Positions 1-64,000 of a stretch of DNA of 64,000 bases are shown here, piece after piece. Position 1 is the stretch's first letter; the number at the start of each line of letters is the position of its first letter. Both the position numbers and the translations under genes were made by a program. The stretch lies in the IMG/VR virus record IMGVR_UViG_2791355125_000001, positions 3,333 through 67,332 of that record. One strand, 5' to 3'. The notes beneath the pieces are model-generated. The model saw only the letters and a list, made by a program, of their open reading frames with translations. It had not been told where the DNA came from and made no database searches. This DNA comes from a virus (Duplodnaviria; Caudoviricetes).

Positions 1-841
1 CGGGGATGGAGCCTACGGCCTCGCTGGGTGCCGCCTTGAACTGCGCCAGCGCGCGCATGGTCTCGGGACCGGCCACACCGTCGATCGTCAGGCCGCGCGC
101 CTTCTGGAAGGCCATCACCGCCTTCTTGGTGGTCGGGCCATAATCGCCGTCGACCTTCACCGGATAACCGGCGCGGACCAGGAGGCCCTGCAGTTCGCGC
201 ACCTTGGCGCCCTGCGAGCCCATGCGCAGCATGCCGGAGGCGACCGAGGCAGGAGCCTTTCCAGTCTTGCTCGCATAGGCCTTGGCCATCCGCAGGTGGT
301 AGCCGTCCTTGATGCCGGCCGGGCCGTTGTAGCCGCGGGTGAAGGCGGAAAAGTCCTTGCGCTGCAATTCGTCGACCAGCCCGAAGGCTTCGATGTAGCG
401 CACCATGATCTCGACCTGCCCGGCGACGCTCTCGCGCGCCTTGGCGACAAGCGCGTCGACCGAGGCGAACCGCAGCTTCTGCCAGTGGGCGCCCATGACC
501 TGGCCGACGCCGTAGCTGGCGCTCTCGTAGGCTGCTTGTCGGTTGATGCGCGAGGCGTCGACCAGCATCTGCCAGCGCTTGACCTGCGAGGCCGGATTCT
601 TGATCGCCCCGGCGCGCGGGCTGGCCAGTCCCTTTCTGCGTGCCTCGTCGCGTTCGTCGCCGGTCAGGCGCTGGTCGAAATAGTGCCCCTCCCAGCGGAT
701 CAGCGGTTCCTTGCGGCCCTTGATCAGTTCGAAGGTCCGCCCGTCGCTCTCGATCTCGATCACGGCGAACAGAATGGCATCCTCGACATTGAGGCGCGTG
801 GCATGGGCCCGCACCGCGTTCACGGTCTGCTGGTCGAACAT
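1..841 (-). CDS. Endolysin, N-acetylmuramidase (DUF3380-like) plus peptidoglycan-binding domain; 3' end runs off window
   Basis: Manual translation MFDQQTVNAVRAHA...AVIEIES...IRWEGHYF...SYGVGQVMG...YNGP, then LRMGSQG...VDGDYGPTT...FQ...DGVAGPET; AAGGA SD upstream. Confidence 0.9.
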   Translation of the reverse strand, partial: MFDQQTVNAVRAHATRLNVEDAILFAVIEIESDGRTFELIKGRKEPLIRWEGHYFDQRLTGDERDEARRKGLASPRAGAIKNPASQVKRWQMLVDASRINRQAAYESASYGVGQVMGAHWQKLRFASVDALVAKARESVAGQVEIMVRYIEAFGLVDELQRKDFSAFTRGYNGPAGIKDGYHLRMAKAYASKTGKAPASVASGMLRMGSQGAKVRELQGLLVRAGYPVKVDGDYGPTTKKAVMAFQKARGLTIDGVAGPETMRALAQFKAAPSEAVGSIP

Positions 842-1799: not shown

Positions 1800-2831
1800 T
1801 TAGACGACTTCCAGCCCTATTTGCGCGGCGTTGACGCCGGCTGCGGTCCAAGCGGCCGAGGTGCTCGGGTCCGTCATGAAAGCCTGCTGGATGTTGCGGT
1901 AGGCGGTGCCGCCGATCTCCACCGTGTCGCCGTTTGCGGTCGAGGTAGAGCGCTTGGCCTTGGCACGGACGTTGATTGTGCCGCCACCTTCGGCTCGCAC
2001 GTGGCTATTCACGACCACCGCCGTGATCGTCGTCGGCGTCGTTGCAAGGTCGGCGAAGTTGTACAGGTCTATGGTGCCGGACGTACCGGTATAGACATAG
2101 GACGTATCCCCATCCGCCGCGGTCTCGGCCACCGCCTGCCAGTTTGTTGCCGCGCCGAAGCGCTGCATAGCTGCACTATCGCCAGCTGCGTTCGGGCGCA
2201 GCGTGTCAATCTGGCGAACGCCAATTGGCGATGTAGTCGGGCCGGAGCCGGCGACGTTGTCCCAGGTAAACGTGTCGTCCACTATGATAGCCGCGCCGAT
2301 GGAGCGATAGCTGATCCGCGCCGTGCCGTTGTTTGAGGTATTTGGCCCGCCAACAACACCGGTGAGCACCTGTGTGCCATCAACCCAGACGGAATAGGAT
2401 CCAAGCGTAATGGCATTGGACTTTGACAACGAAACCTCGATGTGATGCCAGGAGTTGTCGCAGATATTTGCGGTCGAAACGCTGCCTATGACGGTCGCGG
2501 ATGTCGCTAGGCCAAGCGTCCCATCGGACCCGACCGCTAGCCCGCCGGTGAGGGTGCCTACATCATCGGTGAACAGCATGAAAGCCTGTGCGCTGGATGG
2601 CGCGCTGGAGATCTTCACCCAAAACATGTGATAGGTGACGGTCGTGGCATTCGAGGATGTCCGATAGGACTTGGTGATCAAATTACCAGCCGCGCCGGTG
2701 TTCTTGATACACCCGCCGCCGTTGACGCCCTCGCTGCCGTTCCATGTCCAGCCTGTGCCGATAGTCCAGCCCTTGTTGGCGAGGTCGGCCGTTGCCGCGC
2801 AGCTGTCGAATCCGTCCGCAAATCTGTACAT
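1800..2831 (-). CDS. Virion adhesin subunit: LamG/ConA-like domain plus C-terminal beta-sandwich
   Basis: True start MYRFADGFDS overlaps upstream stop (TAATG); WHHIEV..VWVDGTQV LamG-like motif; ends DPSTSAAWTAAGVNAAQIGLEVV. Confidence 0.8.
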   Translation of the reverse strand: MYRFADGFDSCAATADLANKGWTIGTGWTWNGSEGVNGGGCIKNTGAAGNLITKSYRTSSNATTVTYHMFWVKISSAPSSAQAFMLFTDDVGTLTGGLAVGSDGTLGLATSATVIGSVSTANICDNSWHHIEVSLSKSNAITLGSYSVWVDGTQVLTGVVGGPNTSNNGTARISYRSIGAAIIVDDTFTWDNVAGSGPTTSPIGVRQIDTLRPNAAGDSAAMQRFGAATNWQAVAETAADGDTSYVYTGTSGTIDLYNFADLATTPTTITAVVVNSHVRAEGGGTINVRAKAKRSTSTANGDTVEIGGTAYRNIQQAFMTDPSTSAAWTAAGVNAAQIGLEVV

Positions 2832-4306
2832 TAGGTAACGCTCCTTATGATCTCGACATAGGTCTGGGTCTTGCGAACAACGCCCGGATATTTCGCCACG
2901 ACTTCCGCATAGGTCTGGGTGTTGCGGAGCCTGCCGGGCTGCTTGGCGATGATTTCGGCATAGCTTTGAGTGTTGCGAACTCGGCCCGGCTGCTTGGCGA
3001 TGATTTCGGCATAGGTCTGGGTGTTCACTGCGGCATTCGCCGAGACCGGGAAGCCCAGATCCTCGAACCGGTTGATGGTGATCGCGAAGACGCCCTTGTC
3101 CGAATTGGTGAAATAGCCGCCGGGGCCGAACTGCAGAGCCGACACGGGATCGGCGAGCGGGACCGGCACGGCGGCGGTGTATTCCACGCCCCATGTCACC
3201 CCATCCGCCGAAGATGACAGCGCGTAGGTCTTGCCGTTGGAGGAAATCGCCAGCTTCAACCAGTTCGGCCCGTCCTTGGCGCCGTGAGCGGCTAGGCCGT
3301 CATTGGTGGCGGTGAACTGGTTTGCCTTGCGGAAATCGCCGTAGATCTTCGACCGCAGCATCTTGGCCGGATTGGCACCGTCGCCGCGCAAGCCCACCAT
3401 GTGGAAGTTGTTGCCGGACTTGAAGGCGAAGCCGATCGCCGCCTCTCGGCCCTGCTTGTTCATGCCAGACCAGTCGGCCTGGTACTTCATGATGTAGACA
3501 GAGCCTGGCTTGGGAATGTCCCAATCGCGCAGGAAGGTGGCCGAGCCGCCGTTCTTGCCGGTGATCTTCAGGCCGTCTTGCGTGACCTGCTGGACCGGGG
3601 GGCTTTCATAACCACCGCTGTCGGTCTCCGGGTCCGTTGGGTTTGGCACGATGATCTCGCCACCGTCGCCGCCGATTCCGGGGTCTACTGGTGGTGGTGT
3701 ATCGACCGCCTGAATGGTCAGCGCGAAATCCTGCTGACAGGACGTGCCCCAGGCATCTGTCACCTTGAGCCGGAAAGGATAGCTACCACTAGCCGAGAAA
3801 GCCAAGGCAAGGTGCAACTCCTTGCCGTTCTTGATGGTCAACTTTCCGCCGGGATCAGAGACAATGGCAAAGCTCGCCGCCGGGTCCTTGCCGCCGATCA
3901 TGAACATGGTGGCGATCAGGCCGAGCGCCGCATCCTGTCGCGCTGTGTCAGTGGAGAGCGCGATTCCCGAGAGCGCTGGAACAACGGCATCCGTCGGCTC
4001 TGATATCGCCGTGGCCTGCCCGCCTGCCGAGATGGCAGTGACGGCCACGCGCATCCCGAAGCCTTGTTCGGCCTCTGTCGGCTGATAGGTCGCGGCATTC
4101 GCGCCATCGATCTCGACGCCATCGCGGCGCCACTGAAAGGCAAAGCTGTCGATGCTGGAGCCCTTGCCGTCCCATTGGCCTGTATTGGCCGCCAGCTTCT
4201 TGCCAACGTAAGGCGTGCCTGCGATCTGCGGCGAAGCCAGGTTTTCGGGCGGATTCTTTCGACCTCCGCCGCGAGCGCAGCCGAGCCCTAATGTCAGACC
4301 GAGCAT
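2831..4306 (-). CDS. Probable head fibre/scaffold: GLGL anchor, Ig-like, cadherin-like and lectin-like domains, 4 C-terminal repeats
   Basis: N-term MLGLTLGLG; FQWRRDG..I.GA.AATY Ig motif; Y.FRLKVTDA.G....FALTI cadherin-like motif; TQ.YAE repeats. Confidence 0.75.
   Translation of the reverse strand: MLGLTLGLGCARGGGRKNPPENLASPQIAGTPYVGKKLAANTGQWDGKGSSIDSFAFQWRRDGVEIDGANAATYQPTEAEQGFGMRVAVTAISAGGQATAISEPTDAVVPALSGIALSTDTARQDAALGLIATMFMIGGKDPAASFAIVSDPGGKLTIKNGKELHLALAFSASGSYPFRLKVTDAWGTSCQQDFALTIQAVDTPPPVDPGIGGDGGEIIVPNPTDPETDSGGYESPPVQQVTQDGLKITGKNGGSATFLRDWDIPKPGSVYIMKYQADWSGMNKQGREAAIGFAFKSGNNFHMVGLRGDGANPAKMLRSKIYGDFRKANQFTATNDGLAAHGAKDGPNWLKLAISSNGKTYALSSSADGVTWGVEYTAAVPVPLADPVSALQFGPGGYFTNSDKGVFAITINRFEDLGFPVSANAAVNTQTYAEIIAKQPGRVRNTQSYAEIIAKQPGRLRNTQTYAEVVAKYPGVVRKTQTYVEIIRSVT
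2834..3028 (-). repeat. Four tandem ~51-bp (17-aa) repeats NTQTYAEIIAKQPGRV
   Basis: VNTQTYAEIIAKQPGRV / RNTQSYAEIIAKQPGRL / RNTQTYAEVVAKYPGVV / RKTQTYVEIIRSVT. Confidence 0.95.
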
Positions 4307-23227: not shown

Positions 23228-23304
23228 GCGCTCGTAGCTCAATTGGATAGAGCATCGGACTTCGAATCCGCAGGTTGCAGGTTCAACCCCTGCCGAGCGC
23301 ACCA
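23228..23304 (+). tRNA. tRNA-Arg(UCG)
   Basis: Acceptor stem GCGCTCG/CGAGCGC, D-arm AGCTCAATTGGATAGAGC, anticodon loop CT-TCG-AA, T-arm GCAGG TTCAACC CCTGC, encoded CCA. Confidence 0.9.
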
Positions 23305-60600: not shown

Positions 60601-61164
60601 CGGCTTCTCACGGTAACAAGTCGAGACGTGTTGGACACGGTCGATGCACCAGTCGACACGGTAACATTCGCCAGCCGCGCCATTCGCCCGTACAGACCCG
60701 CCAATGTGAAGGTGAACGGCAGCTCATCGGGTCCGGTTGATGCTATCTCACTCGATCCGATCCCGGTCACGTGGGCTCGGCGTAACCGGCTGACGGAATC
60801 GGCGCCGCTTGACTGGACCGCCGCTGATCAGGCGCCAGAGACTGGACAGACGACAACCGTCACGCTGACCGATCTGAGCGGCACGGTGGTGCGCACCTAC
60901 TCCGGGATTACGGGGACGTCGCAGGCAGTCGCCAAGGCCGATTTCGGTGGCGTCGAGCAGGGTTACATCGTCGTCTCGGCCGAGCGCGACGGTTACTCTT
61001 CGCTGCGGTCATACCGTATCCCGGTCATTCTCGCGACGCCAAGCCCATCGGACATTCTGATCGACAACAGCACGGTTGCGGTCACGACACCGATCGGGAC
61101 GCTGGTGGGCAAGCTTTCGGTAGTCGGCGGAACCGCGCCGTTCACCTTCGAGATCATTGGTTAA
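57661..61164 (+). CDS. Central tail tip/host-specificity protein
   Basis: GYKYYLGMH.GLCHGP, PAYRG, MNPAHIIRECLT, RGCLDT.P; ends in a half cadherin-like domain. Confidence 0.88.
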   Translation: MFWNFVIGLASFALNLILTPKPQDAKPASLSDFKAPTADEGREIPVAFGTNDFADPNVVWYGSLGTDAIKGPRRYGFFGPRQTLGYKYYLGMHMGLCHGPADEIQEIRVGDKVAWKGAFRGGRMGINKENLFGGQDREGGISGKLDVEMGAQDQGRNDYLVAKQGPDTPAYRGIVGIVLRGVYLGTSPYIKPWAFRIKRIFKRSDGSAQWYPQTAEVAAPIDTTKGNPGIDLGVHLNNGINWDTYGDYILWQHHTGDPIVWSIPTGKHITIAREGTWEFGPRGHITGDNEIVVRQGSGGTGTSLKFYKPDTGALLQSVDIPGTATNHGFLMDDIEVDGTRWGVARSVGPSAAASRWNLLKKEPGGPWSLQWSEADTGESVAAISMGRKYVYGVTATSSMNIVRVAWPSLALTIVAPTGLTANVLNCHYFDDTDEVIVVCANGDIRVYSADLSTLKRSAIGIANGSAWGMASKRMKSGPGTIGLLTNVSGAVKIRQVGVSTLEIVHTINVADTNFVGKDVPQLGHEAGFNEEHGSVLLANGLFRSLFWFVTGASSGDMNPAHIIRECLTDKTWGMGYNDADIDDASFRTAADIFYAEGFGLSLKWYREEEIREFVSRILAHVDAYLFVDRSTGKFRLKPIRKDYDINTIPVINEDVVTDWTEIERRQTAEAVNQVIVNYYNREKRKTGSHAVTNIAQAMQSTSGIVSTSRGYPGINHRDLAIRVATRDVLSLGAGIISGRISCKRTVEKLNPGDPFRLVSDRHKLSGEVMRVVDQDFGDGRSNKIVMKFVQDVFNLGAAVLVDSSAEDVPDTPTAPVSPRLIWEMPYRELRQMIGDTDLAAMLSADPKAGLLQIAGGRPSDNALNAIVQVGGGSVYSDAGSLDFAPSAALDAAISADATDVAVSGEIGLGNVSIGSLAVIFGEARTEVVRIDAIGSGTLTIARGCLDTVPRSHTKGTAILFFDDFSESDFEKRTNGDSVSVRLLTVTSRDVLDTVDAPVDTVTFASRAIRPYRPANVKVNGSSSGPVDAISLDPIPVTWARRNRLTESAPLDWTAADQAPETGQTTTVTLTDLSGTVVRTYSGITGTSQAVAKADFGGVEQGYIVVSAERDGYSSLRSYRIPVILATPSPSDILIDNSTVAVTTPIGTLVGKLSVVGGTAPFTFEIIG

Positions 61165-61176
61165 AGGATAGACGAG

Positions 61177-62196
61177 ATGACGGTCTTTTTTCAGGGCGCG
61201 GAAATGCAGGATTTCCCGACGGTCGTTGGAACGGTCACGCACCAGACGACTGCGGGAACTTTCACTTCCGCCAATGCAAGATGCTCCAACAGAACGGATA
61301 CGTCTGGGTCGGAGTACAGCCATTATCTTGAATCATCTGCTTTTTCATCGCCTGAATTCTGGACCCATTGCAAGTTCAGCGTAGGGTTCATGGGCAATAC
61401 GCCGTTCAATTTTCTGACGTGGTTTGCTGGTGGGACACAGCGGCTGGCCTTGCGCCAAAGTGCTGCTTCGTCCGGGCTGATGCAATTGCGCCGATGGGAT
61501 GGAGCGTCCTGGACCGTGCTCGCAACATCTGGGGCGACTTACGCGATCAACACTCTCTACGTTTTGGACATCTACGTAAAATTGGGTAATCCGGGTTCGG
61601 TGCGCGTCTATCTTGGCATTGCGGGGACGCCCGGCAGTAGTGTCCCTATAATCGCGGAAGACTCGCTTGATCTATCGTTTGGCGGAGCGGTCACGGCGTT
61701 GGACAAGGTGCGCTGGTCAGGCCAGAACGCCGGTGGCGGCGCATATACTTATTTCTCCGAATGCATTGTTGCCGACTGGAACACCATCGGCTCGAAGCTG
61801 GTCGCGCGAGCGCCGACCGCCAACGGCGCCTACTCGGAATGGTCAGGTGCGGGCTATTCCGCACTCAACGAACTGACGCCGGCCGCCACCTACATGACCA
61901 GCGGCGCGGCGGATCAGCGTATCTCCACCGTGATGGCTACTTTCCCGGCGCTCGGAACCGGAGAGCGGATCGAACGGGTGAAGGTGGCCGCTAACGCTTT
62001 ACGTGATGCTTCCGGCCCGCAAAAAATGAACATTTTCTACAGGGTGGCTGGCGCAGACGATCATAAGAGCGATCGAGCGCTAACCGTTTCCGCGGCGAAC
62101 TATACCGAGGCATGGGACATGTCCCCGGCCACTGGAACCTATTGGACACCGACGGAACTGAATGCGTCTGAACCAGGCGCGCGGTCGAGGGCGTAA
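61177..62196 (+). CDS. Virion adhesin subunit, distant homolog of 1800-2831
   Basis: LamG-like N-part; P.A.G...W..Y.AL.E; ends SPATGTYWTPTELNASEPGARSRA. Confidence 0.75.
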   Translation: MTVFFQGAEMQDFPTVVGTVTHQTTAGTFTSANARCSNRTDTSGSEYSHYLESSAFSSPEFWTHCKFSVGFMGNTPFNFLTWFAGGTQRLALRQSAASSGLMQLRRWDGASWTVLATSGATYAINTLYVLDIYVKLGNPGSVRVYLGIAGTPGSSVPIIAEDSLDLSFGGAVTALDKVRWSGQNAGGGAYTYFSECIVADWNTIGSKLVARAPTANGAYSEWSGAGYSALNELTPAATYMTSGAADQRISTVMATFPALGTGERIERVKVAANALRDASGPQKMNIFYRVAGADDHKSDRALTVSAANYTEAWDMSPATGTYWTPTELNASEPGARSRA

Positions 62197-62199
62197 GAC

Positions 62200-62526
62200 A
62201 TGGGTGTCAGCCTCGACAAGCTCCACGGCACAGCGGCCTACCGAGATCAGAACGCTGGCGACAACGTCGACAAGCAGTGGCTCGAGAAGCTGCATGTCAC
62301 GGCGATCTACCGCGACACCAAGGCTGGCTACACTGACCAGATCCTGTTCGACAAGATCCACGTCACCGCCGTCTACCGCTTTCAGGGGGCGGCATTCTCG
62401 ATCGTTGGAGATGAACTTCGAGTTGCTGGCGGGCTTACGGTCGGCACGCACAACGTCACCGTCAAAGCGACGGACGCCAACGGCAAGAGCTTCACAAAGG
62501 TAATCCCGATCACCGTGACGCCGTAG
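62200..62526 (+). CDS. Small scaffold: three KLHVTAxYR repeats plus C-half of a cadherin-like domain
   Basis: LDKLHGTAAYR / LEKLHVTAIYR / FDKIHVTAVYR, then FSIVGDELRV...VTVKATDANG.SF.K...ITVT. Confidence 0.75.
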   Translation: MGVSLDKLHGTAAYRDQNAGDNVDKQWLEKLHVTAIYRDTKAGYTDQILFDKIHVTAVYRFQGAAFSIVGDELRVAGGLTVGTHNVTVKATDANGKSFTKVIPITVTP

Positions 62527-62856: not shown

Positions 62857-63075
62857 TTAGCCGCCGCCGGCGCCGCCGCCAAGAGTGCACGTGCCGCCGT
62901 TGCCATTAAGATTGGTACACAGACCTTCAAATGCGGTCTTGACGTAACCGCCGATAGCCAGGACGGCAATGATGGCGGCGGCGGAGATGATGCCGACCAG
63001 GATTGAATATTCAACCATAGCGGCGCCGTCTTCTTCTTCACGGAATCGCCGAGCGACGTTCAAAATCTTTTCCAT
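62857..63075 (-). CDS. flp: Flp/Fap (Tad) pilin
   Basis: RRF.EEEDG/AAMVEY prepilin motif followed by a hydrophobic helix. Confidence 0.92.
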   Translation of the reverse strand: MEKILNVARRFREEEDGAAMVEYSILVGIISAAAIIAVLAIGGYVKTAFEGLCTNLNGNGGTCTLGGGAGGG

Positions 63076-63142
63076 TACGAGATACCCCTGATTAGACCCA
63101 ACGCAATACGAGTGAGGGTGTCCCCCGCTTCTCGTGATTTTG

Positions 63143-63278
63143 ATCATATGACTGCGATTATTTTGCCGTCAACTACATCTTAAGAGTTCGTTAACCGACA
63201 GGTACTTGGCACGAAAACATGCGTTGTCTCCAGCGCTATGAAATTGCTCACGAATTTGGCGCATTAACTGTTTCTTAA
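63143..63278 (-). promoter_or_regulatory. Pilin promoter with two CtrA boxes
   Basis: Minus strand TTGACG-N18-TATGAT; TTAA-N7-TTAAC 63180-63195; TTAA-N7-TTAA 63264-63278. Confidence 0.8.
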
Positions 63279-63369: not shown

Positions 63370-64000
63370 ATGTTCGATCAACCCACCGTGGACGCGGTGC
63401 GGGCTCACGCCGCGCGTCTGAAGATAGAGCCGGCGATCCTGTTTGCCGTCATCGAGATCGAGAGCGGCGGGCGGTCCTTCGAACTGATCAAGGGGCGCAA
63501 GGAGCCGCTGATCCGCTGGGAGGGGCACTACTTCGACCAGCGCCTAACTGGTGACGAGCGCGACGAGGCCCGCAGGAAGGGACTGGCAAGCCCGCGTGCC
63601 GGGGCAATCAAGAACCCAGCCTCGCAGGTGAAGCGTTGGCAGATGTTGACCGATGCCTCGCGCATCAACCGACAAGCCGCCTACGAAAGCGCCAGCTATG
63701 GCGTCGGCCAGGTCATGGGCGCCCACTGGAAGAAGCTGGGTTTCGCCTCGGTTGACGCATTTGTCGCCAAGGCGCGCGAGAGCGTTGCGGGTCAGGTCGA
63801 GATCATGGTGCGCTACATCGAGGCCTTCGGGCTGGTCGACGAACTGCAGCGCAAGGACTTTTCCGCCTTCACACGCGGCTACAACGGCCCGGCCGGCATC
63901 AAGGGCGGCTACCACCTCCTGATGGCCAAGGCCTACGCGAGCAAAACCGGCAAGGCTCTTGCCTCGGTCGCCTCTGGCATGCTGCGCATGGGCTCACAGG
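63370..64000 (+). CDS. Endolysin (N-acetylmuramidase), 3' end outside window; closely similar to 1-841
   Basis: MFDQPTVDAVRAHAARL..AVIEIES..IRWEGHYF..YNGP; AAGGA SD. Confidence 0.9.
   Translation, partial: MFDQPTVDAVRAHAARLKIEPAILFAVIEIESGGRSFELIKGRKEPLIRWEGHYFDQRLTGDERDEARRKGLASPRAGAIKNPASQVKRWQMLTDASRINRQAAYESASYGVGQVMGAHWKKLGFASVDAFVAKARESVAGQVEIMVRYIEAFGLVDELQRKDFSAFTRGYNGPAGIKGGYHLLMAKAYASKTGKALASVASGMLRMGSQ

Follow-up and report, generated by a model that had tools for sequence, protein, structure and literature searches.

The window analysed here (the whole of a 64,000-nucleotide stretch of a Caudoviricetes genome, positions 3,333 to 67,332 of IMG/VR record IMGVR_UViG_2791355125_000001) carries two opposed prophages: prophage A, which occupies the minus strand from the left end, and prophage B, which occupies the plus strand and runs to the right end. 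Our subject is a pair of adjacent genes in prophage B, P0001 and P0002, which encode a two-domain ‘subunit’ and a small repeat-bearing ‘tether’—together a candidate rope-and-bead tail fibre—and the corresponding pair of prophage A, P0003 and P0004. The features concerned, in window coordinates, are as follows.

61177..62196, plus strand: P0001, the 339-residue subunit (‘bead’), A1 type, phrog_6368; 18 homologues at 34–61% identity
61177..61776, plus strand: N-terminal ConA-like/LamG jelly-roll domain of P0001, residues 1–200, assigned from AlphaFold2 (AF2) modelling and Foldseek
61777..62193, plus strand: C-terminal jelly-roll domain of P0001 (C-domain), residues 201–339, the conserved part and proposed docking domain
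62200..62526, plus strand: P0002, the 108-residue tether (‘rope’) protein, found directly after the subunit gene at loci L002, L009, L010 and L011 too
62212..62382, plus strand: three strand-like repeats of P0002, residues 5–16, 28–39 and 50–61, the proposed docking sites
62389..62523, plus strand: C-terminal Ig-like segment of P0002, residues ~64–108 (Pfam He_PIG, E 0.017, below the cut-off)
1800..2831, minus strand: P0003, the 343-residue subunit of prophage A, A2 type, phrog_2448, homologous to P0001
2831..4306, minus strand: P0004, the 491-residue repeat-bearing fibre protein of prophage A, its stop codon overlapping the start of P0003 by one base

Starting with the two subunits, we see only a marginal match when P0001 and P0003 are compared directly by BLASTP (E 0.047 over 27 residues); profiles built from 19 and 26 homologues, respectively, align over 273 columns with a probability of 99.7 and an E-value of 2.3e-26 (hhalign). 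The C-domain motifs that a preliminary description of this DNA had picked out in the 339-residue protein and in the product of 1800–2831 are thus real, and the homology of the two subunits, which that description had left to a comparison of hidden Markov models, stands. Each protein also matches a PHROG family, both of unknown function, along its full length: P0001 matches phrog_6368 (E 1.4e-34, residues 1–339) and P0003 matches phrog_2448 (E 2.2e-27, residues 1–342). In an alignment of 27 C-domain sequences W323 is invariant, with P317, T319 and G334 at least 90% conserved. Both subunits end just past these shared motifs, as had been remarked beforehand, and so do the best-matching members of the family; 149 of the 150 best matches end within ~5 residues of the end of the profile.

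The AF2 model of the P0001 N-domain has a predicted local distance difference test score (pLDDT) mostly above 90 over residues 50–200. Searched against the PDB with Foldseek, it matches polysaccharide lyases, toxin receptor-binding domains and carbohydrate-binding modules (CBMs) with E-values from 3e-8 to 5e-5, the CBM2 module of the phage J-1 Dit protein among them; the best figures (probability 1.0, E 3e-8, target-normalised TM-score (TMt) 0.61) speak for a ConA-like fold, though Pfam gives no LamG match for P0001. This domain is likely to be the carbohydrate- or receptor-binding part of the protein. For the C-domain, a model of the last 143 residues built on 113 sequences gives a confident jelly roll, its pLDDT being 91.5 and its predicted TM-score (pTM) 0.84. 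A first model had shown low pLDDT at residues 212–237, which we considered as a disordered docking loop; the idea was dropped when the same residues became confident with a deeper alignment. Against the PDB, the C-domain model has no Foldseek match at E ≤ 0.001 (the best, a CBM35, reaches E 0.028). Against the predicted viral structures of BFVD there are 36 at this threshold, with query-normalised TM-scores (TMq) up to 0.87, and these are uncharacterised phage proteins of ~160–800 residues, most of them 300–470; the one exception, of just 99 residues, goes by the name ‘Tail protein P’ (Salmonella phage 37).

The two domains are not equally conserved. The C-terminal part is conserved above the N-domain in 16 of 16 pairs compared, including all 10 pairs of the A1 type; identity of the P0001 N-domain to its A1 relatives is 30–51%. 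The same holds within a single genome, where a third prophage, on contig C5, has its own subunit and tether pair: P0001 and the C5 paralogue are 83% identical in the C-domain and 51% in the N-domain. The C-terminal part being conserved and the N-domain variable, the pattern is therefore that of a conserved attachment domain bearing a variable receptor-binding head.

Turning to the repeat proteins, the P0001 stop codon (TAA, 62194–62196) is followed by three bases and then by the ATG of P0002 at 62200. P0002 opens with three copies of a 12-residue motif, [LF][DE]K[LI]H[GV]TA.YR, the first residues of which are 5, 28 and 50 (spacings of 23 and 22), much as first described; a repeat detector finds a chain of three copies, against a maximum of two in 20 shuffled sequences. 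The repeats are retained in relatives of 49% and 40% identity (loci L010 and L012), and the positions invariant in the P0002 alignment are D6, K7, Y14, K30, L31, T34, A35, Y37, F50, D51, K52, A57, Y59 and R60. Homologues of near length are scarce: a database of 5.8 billion sequences holds two, P0002 itself and one relative. The C5 tether is 94% identical to P0002. The Ig-like segment that completes P0002 is missing from the 77-residue homologue of Mesorhizobium cantuariense (L010). By eye, there are what look like similar Ig-like segments at the C-terminus of the gpJ-like protein encoded upstream (61000–61164), in the tail of P0002 (62389–62523) and in the middle of P0004 (~3700–3900, minus strand).

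In prophage A the arrangement is reversed, P0004 preceding P0003 where P0002 follows P0001. The last 64 residues of P0004 (2834–3025) consist of four 17-residue TQTYAE-type repeats, which are unrelated to those of P0002 (BLASTP, E 89); on both counts the preliminary description was right. P0004 residues 441–490 match phrog_13560 (E 2.8e-6), the family of phage phiCbK gp316 (E 1.2e-46 for gp316 itself); P0002 gives no match to this profile, so that phrog_13560 fits the P0003/P0004 pair and not the P0001/P0002 pair.

A survey of the genes flanking subunit homologues, as had been proposed, gives a positive result. It covered 21 loci in which the subunit has a gene of its own: 15 belong to cultured phages, three come from sequence collections, two are the pairs of the window and one lies on contig C5 (L011, whose proteins are those of C5, adds nothing to the count). 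At 19 of the 21 a gene abutting the subunit gene carries, by eye, at least three strand-like repeats. The repeats take several forms. At the P0001/P0002 pair, on C5 and at L009 and L010 the subunit gene is followed by an open reading frame (ORF) of 77–108 residues with three P0002-type repeats, and the 77-residue protein of L010 comprises the repeats and little else. The 69-residue gp316 of phiCbK, with three TQETVEVI-type repeats, lies immediately 5′ of the gene for subunit gp315; RcKickapoo gp60 (76 residues) and RpAliso gp13 (124 residues) are likewise small repeat proteins preceding a subunit gene. In DSS3P8 gp054 and RcXuper gp69 three repeats stand at the extreme C-terminus, and the subunit gene follows. 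Cp1R7A-A1 gp112, BCSR5 gp320 and gp316, S20 gp31, Delta gp33 and Strzyga gp700 carry from 4 to ~14 repeats and adjoin one or two subunit genes, and the N4-like EE36phi1 gp76 and DS-1410Ws-06 gp75 have four internal repeats each. Siphophages, podophages and jumbo phages all show the pairing, and their hosts span several bacterial phyla. Of the ORFs adjacent to a subunit gene the detector flagged 14 of 36, and of the non-adjacent ones 10 of 149 (Fisher p = 5e-6); it is crude, picking up Gly-rich tracts when used without a low-complexity mask and still missing weak repeats when used with one.

Two further observations belong here. In Burkholderia phage BcepSauron (NC_049851.1; L021 5642–5860) there is an unannotated 72-residue ORF with three KVYGEV-type repeats, which begins two bases past the gene for subunit gp273; small rope genes of this kind are probably often missed by annotation. 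In Brevundimonas phage Strzyga (L013 4992–7442) and in Delta (L019 6682–8061) long Gly-rich tracts open the proteins, with the strand repeats coming after, and the Strzyga protein then runs on into a large C-terminal part.

Locus L012, an IMG/VR viral contig, brings the two pairs of the window together. An A1-type subunit gene is followed, after three bases, by an ORF of 857 residues that opens with four P0002-type repeats (DKLYTTAIYQY-type), passes through two LamG-like regions and closes with six P0004-type repeats (TQ.Y.E-type), these six being of two subtypes with three copies each. Directly after it come two A2-type subunit genes. Both repeat types are thus present on one protein, each end beside its own subunit type, a layout that, as far as sequences go, supports the view that repeat type tracks subunit type. 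Similarly, at all five loci with at least two subunit paralogues (L012, Strzyga, BCSR5, Delta and Cp1R7A-A1) we see, by eye, repeats of at least two sequence types.

Natural fusions offer a second view of the same relationship. In five of the eight longer subunit homologues that we read (P0053, P0060, P0061, P0063 and P0073) a similar strand segment lies in cis, 4–12 residues past the last strand of the C-domain; P0073 has two C-domains with one such segment after each. Considered alongside the way in which the free subunits break off, the cis strands of the fusions suggest a pairing of this segment with the final strand of the C-domain. P0053 (363 residues) has the C-domain and cis strand, no lectin domain, a signal-like N-terminus and a membrane-anchor-like C-terminus; given this architecture, the C-domain/strand module may also serve on cell surfaces. 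Streptomyces phage Galactica gp11 (L018 4809–8120), a 1103-residue ‘minor tail protein’, combines a subunit and cis strand with ~25 basic repeats, these last being of a different kind from the strand repeats.

We think it probable, if some way short of assured, that P0001 and P0002 make up a rope-and-bead tail fibre, in which a small protein carries copies of a larger one. They would be parts of a single accessory tail-tip fibre of a siphophage prophage resembling a gene transfer agent (GTA). P0001 would be the two-domain bead, its fast-diverging, lectin- or lyase-like N-terminal domain turned toward the host surface and its conserved C-terminal jelly roll ending in an exposed last strand. P0002 would be the short rope, each of its 12-residue strand motifs docking one P0001 C-domain by β-sheet augmentation, such that one rope bears either three beads or a single trimer in which every monomer takes one strand; the rope may be fastened to the tail tip by its Ig-like C-terminal segment. 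The strand would be given in cis in the fusions and, elsewhere, in trans and several times over by the neighbouring gene. Prophage A would be built along the same lines, but its strand motif is another one and lies at the C-terminal end of a larger fibre protein, P0004. The contact between P0001 and P0002, together with its geometry and stoichiometry, is something we infer from the sequences.

A broader proposal, which we hold tentatively and at slightly less than an even chance, is that such strand motifs make up a peptide ‘address code’ by which virions display an unnamed superfamily of phage receptor-binding subunits, with at least 33,783 clusters. The motifs, of 17–23 residues and in sets of three, would be placed on free mini-proteins, on the C-termini of fibres or on extensions of Dit and hub proteins, and each motif type would recruit its own subunit paralogue through the conserved C-terminal jelly roll; the system would have arisen independently of that of phages GP4 and A1002 (see below), and would allow lectin heads to be exchanged while the docking code is kept. 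The suggestion made at the outset, that the two pairs share one architecture with different strand codes, is borne out in part: subunit homology, the survey and the tracking of repeat type with subunit type all speak for it. The purpose then proposed for the codes, to limit cross-loading between co-resident phages, finds no support, since prophage B and the C5 prophage of the same genome have nearly the same tether (94%) and C-domain (83%) and so are not orthogonal. The presence of both codes in the single L012 protein points instead to heads of different kinds being loaded in a set order, in the manner of A1002.

Several observations weigh against our proposal for P0001 and P0002. The C-domain folds confidently alone and shows no visible need of an extra strand, and among the 50 PDB matches listed for it by Foldseek there is no phage fibre or whisker. 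The 15 cultured phages of the survey were picked by hand, one per phage group, from 89 tblastn records, and are not a random sample. Two of the 21 loci (XM05 gp65 and Vibrio phage 1.224.A gp68) have only two repeats; in the N4-like phages and Strzyga the repeats are internal and not at the gene end that faces the subunit; and BcepSauron, over the 10.6 kb that we went through, has a single subunit gene to three sets of three repeats. The detector missed repeats that are seen by eye (RcKickapoo gp60, RpAliso gp13), besides flagging its 10 non-adjacent ORFs. Finally, the binding steps are drawn from gene order and domain architecture, and tail-fibre genes cluster anyway.

This last point is the starting place for a different explanation, namely that the repeats anchor their own protein to the hub, Dit or gpJ-like protein, that the subunit is an independent receptor-binding protein attached elsewhere, and that gene adjacency reflects a mere clustering of distal tail genes. 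The repeats of Strzyga, Delta and S20 do sit in N-terminal extensions of baseplate-like proteins, and P0001 and P0002 come directly after the hub and gpJ-like genes. We nevertheless regard this as improbable, as it leaves unexplained why the free-standing, repeat-only proteins of 69–77 residues (phiCbK gp316, L010) always abut a subunit gene, why the repeat type switches with the subunit type on the one L012 protein, and why a cis strand directly follows the C-domain in fused homologues.

Equally, the repeats could form a self-contained fibrous fold (for instance a trimeric β-spiral or β-helix shaft), with the subunit as a separate tip protein or assembly factor. Shaft repeats do look like this, being units of 17–23 residues in which hydrophobic positions alternate and turns are rich in Gly and Pro, and copy numbers are small, often three. 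Against this, a shaft at the extreme C-terminus with nothing beyond it (P0004, DSS3P8 gp054, RcXuper gp69) would be unusual, as would a shaft-only protein of 69 residues, and the single cis strand that follows the C-domain in fusions is no shaft; the subunit of N4-like roseophages moreover bears the annotation ‘virion protein’, which argues against a pure chaperone. A shaft of this kind therefore seems to us unlikely. That repeats and adjacency are coincidence, or low-complexity sequence without function, is barely credible: the detector does flag those 10 of 149 non-adjacent ORFs, but the repeat positions are conserved at 40–49% identity, flagged ORFs are enriched beside subunit genes (p = 5e-6) and the pairing recurs across sipho-, podo- and jumbo phages of several phyla.

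The subunit belongs to a very large family. Out of 1.84 billion, 33,783 cluster representatives match a profile built on the P0003 branch at E ≤ 0.001; at the stricter E ≤ 1e-30 there are 11,951. No Pfam family scores above threshold for either subunit; P0001 has no Pfam match and P0003 has a match to Laminin_G_2 (E 0.006) whose 17.5 bits fall under the cut-off of 22.9. Nor do the profiles find solved relatives among PDB sequences: A1 has no match, A2 has three at chance level (E 0.059–0.11) and the C-domain profile A7 has none even at E ≤ 10. By tblastn, subunit relatives are present in 41 and 48 cultured-phage records, from phiCbK-like Caulobacter phages, siphophages of Brevundimonas, Rhodobacter and Ruegeria, N4-like roseophages and vibriophages, Burkholderia jumbo phages and Streptomyces phages. 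Few bear an informative name (‘virion protein’, which is how the N4-like roseophage subunits are annotated, ‘minor tail protein’ or ‘glycoside hydrolase’), and the first two of these speak for a place of the subunit in the virion. Profile A1 has no match at E ≤ 1e-10 in 400 other genomes of the same order, so this branch is rare in reference genomes.

Working through prophage B from the tape measure gene, we see a 430-residue ORF, a hub protein (Pfam Phage_BR0599 plus a phiJL001 gp84 N-domain), a gpJ-like protein of 1167 residues, P0001 and P0002, and then a Flp/Fap-like ORF on the opposite strand and a muramidase gene. The gpJ-like gene is the immediate neighbour of P0001:

57661..61164, plus strand: gpJ/GTA-ORFg15-like host-specificity protein, directly upstream of P0001 (Pfam Phage-tail_3, E 9.5e-9)

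This gene order places P0001 and P0002 distally in the tail module of a GTA-like siphophage. The Flp/Fap pilin-like ORF (62857–63147, minus strand; Pfam E 1.4e-7, 31.6 bits against a cut-off of 32.2) lies between the tail and lysis genes, and has a counterpart in the C5 prophage (L002 606–815); it may be a moron. Closely similar N-acetylmuramidase genes close both prophages, at the two ends of the window (2–841, minus strand, and 63370–63999, plus strand); by eye they are about nine-tenths identical, and being inverted they could allow recombination between the two prophages. A tRNA-Arg (TCG) gene at 23228–23304, between the prophages, may mark an integration site. Elsewhere in the same genome, contig C46 (L006 1381–1938) encodes a 185-residue remnant that consists of the C-terminal half of an A2-type subunit only and adjoins a muramidase gene; it looks like the decayed tail end of a fourth prophage.

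How does this arrangement compare with systems already described? In chaperone–usher pili a strand supplied by another polypeptide pairs with the edge of a β-sandwich (donor-strand complementation), the pilins having an Ig-like fold that is short of one strand and unstable alone. The cis forms found here resemble the self-complemented constructs of that system; unlike a pilin, the C-domain has a jelly-roll fold, of which AF2 gives a confident model with no partner present (pLDDT 91.5), and there is no chaperone or usher. A second likeness is to the evolved Dit of Lactobacillus phage J-1 (PDB 5ly8), whose CBM2 module is matched by the model of the P0001 N-domain, which fits a binding of host polysaccharide; in J-1 the module is inserted into Dit itself, whereas here it forms part of a separate protein, with a repeat peptide as the proposed tether. 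The direct relative of the P0003/P0004 pair is phiCbK gp315/gp316 (phrog_2448 and phrog_13560), both annotated as hypothetical, gp316 being made up of three TQ.T.E.I repeats and nothing else. A search of the literature on phiCbK tail structure returned no paper describing gp315 or gp316, and the two proteins offer a tractable test case for the pairing.

The rope-and-bead principle is itself already published, from 2023 on, for phages GP4, Bas63 and A1002. In the solved cases the rope threads several copies of a small β-sandwich protein, whose sheets it augments or completes. Whisker (gp5) dimers of Bas63/Sf14 wrap an N-terminal rope of the collar protein ‘like beads on a string’, their incomplete sandwiches being completed by the rope, and in GP4 five dimers of Fiber-1 (gp80) go with a rope that is a protein of its own (PMC12609058). 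A1002 has a nozzle rope, gp39, with 11 sites, of which 1–7 take dimers of gp40 and 8–11 dimers of gp41; each dimer forms an augmented sheet with the fibre-dock domain of gp39, at the end of which rope stands an Ig-like domain (PMC13730344). A literature search on rope proteins of phage fibres gave these two papers only. Like these, the tethers here are polypeptides with what would be serial docking segments, three in P0002 and four in P0004, and both known forms of rope recur, the separate small protein (as in GP4) and the extension of a structural protein (as in the Bas63 collar and the A1002 nozzle). With A1002 there are two closer likenesses, L012 also setting two bead types on separate stretches of rope and P0002 also ending in an Ig-like segment, though with a weak signal.

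The differences lie chiefly in the bead. GP4 gp80 and Bas63 gp5 are proteins of ~140–170 residues with an N-terminal helix and an incomplete sandwich; the beads here are of 320–360 residues and have an added ConA-like domain. We had thought to find a bead fold of the GP4/Bas63 type in the C-domain, but no such bead is among the 50 PDB matches listed by Foldseek and the PDB sequence searches gave none either; for this reason we do not file P0001 and P0002 in the GP4/Bas63/A1002 family. Known beads bind as dimers, whereas repeat counts of three, or of three plus three, suggest another stoichiometry here; and the known systems belong to podophages or neck structures, the present ones mainly to siphophage tail tips. 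Were the pairing physical, two sets of hypothetical genes, the subunit superfamily and the tiny repeat ORFs, would gain a role, and, if it is true, the docking motifs would give a handle for predicting the position of receptor-binding proteins on the virion and for swapping lectin heads in laboratory phages. The bead proposed here, going by the models, is a different and structurally unrelated one, composed of a ConA-like domain and a jelly-roll domain; with it, if we are right, the rope-and-bead principle, so far a matter of a few structures of podophages and myophages, would also take in siphophage tail tips as well as N4-like roseophages and jumbo phages.

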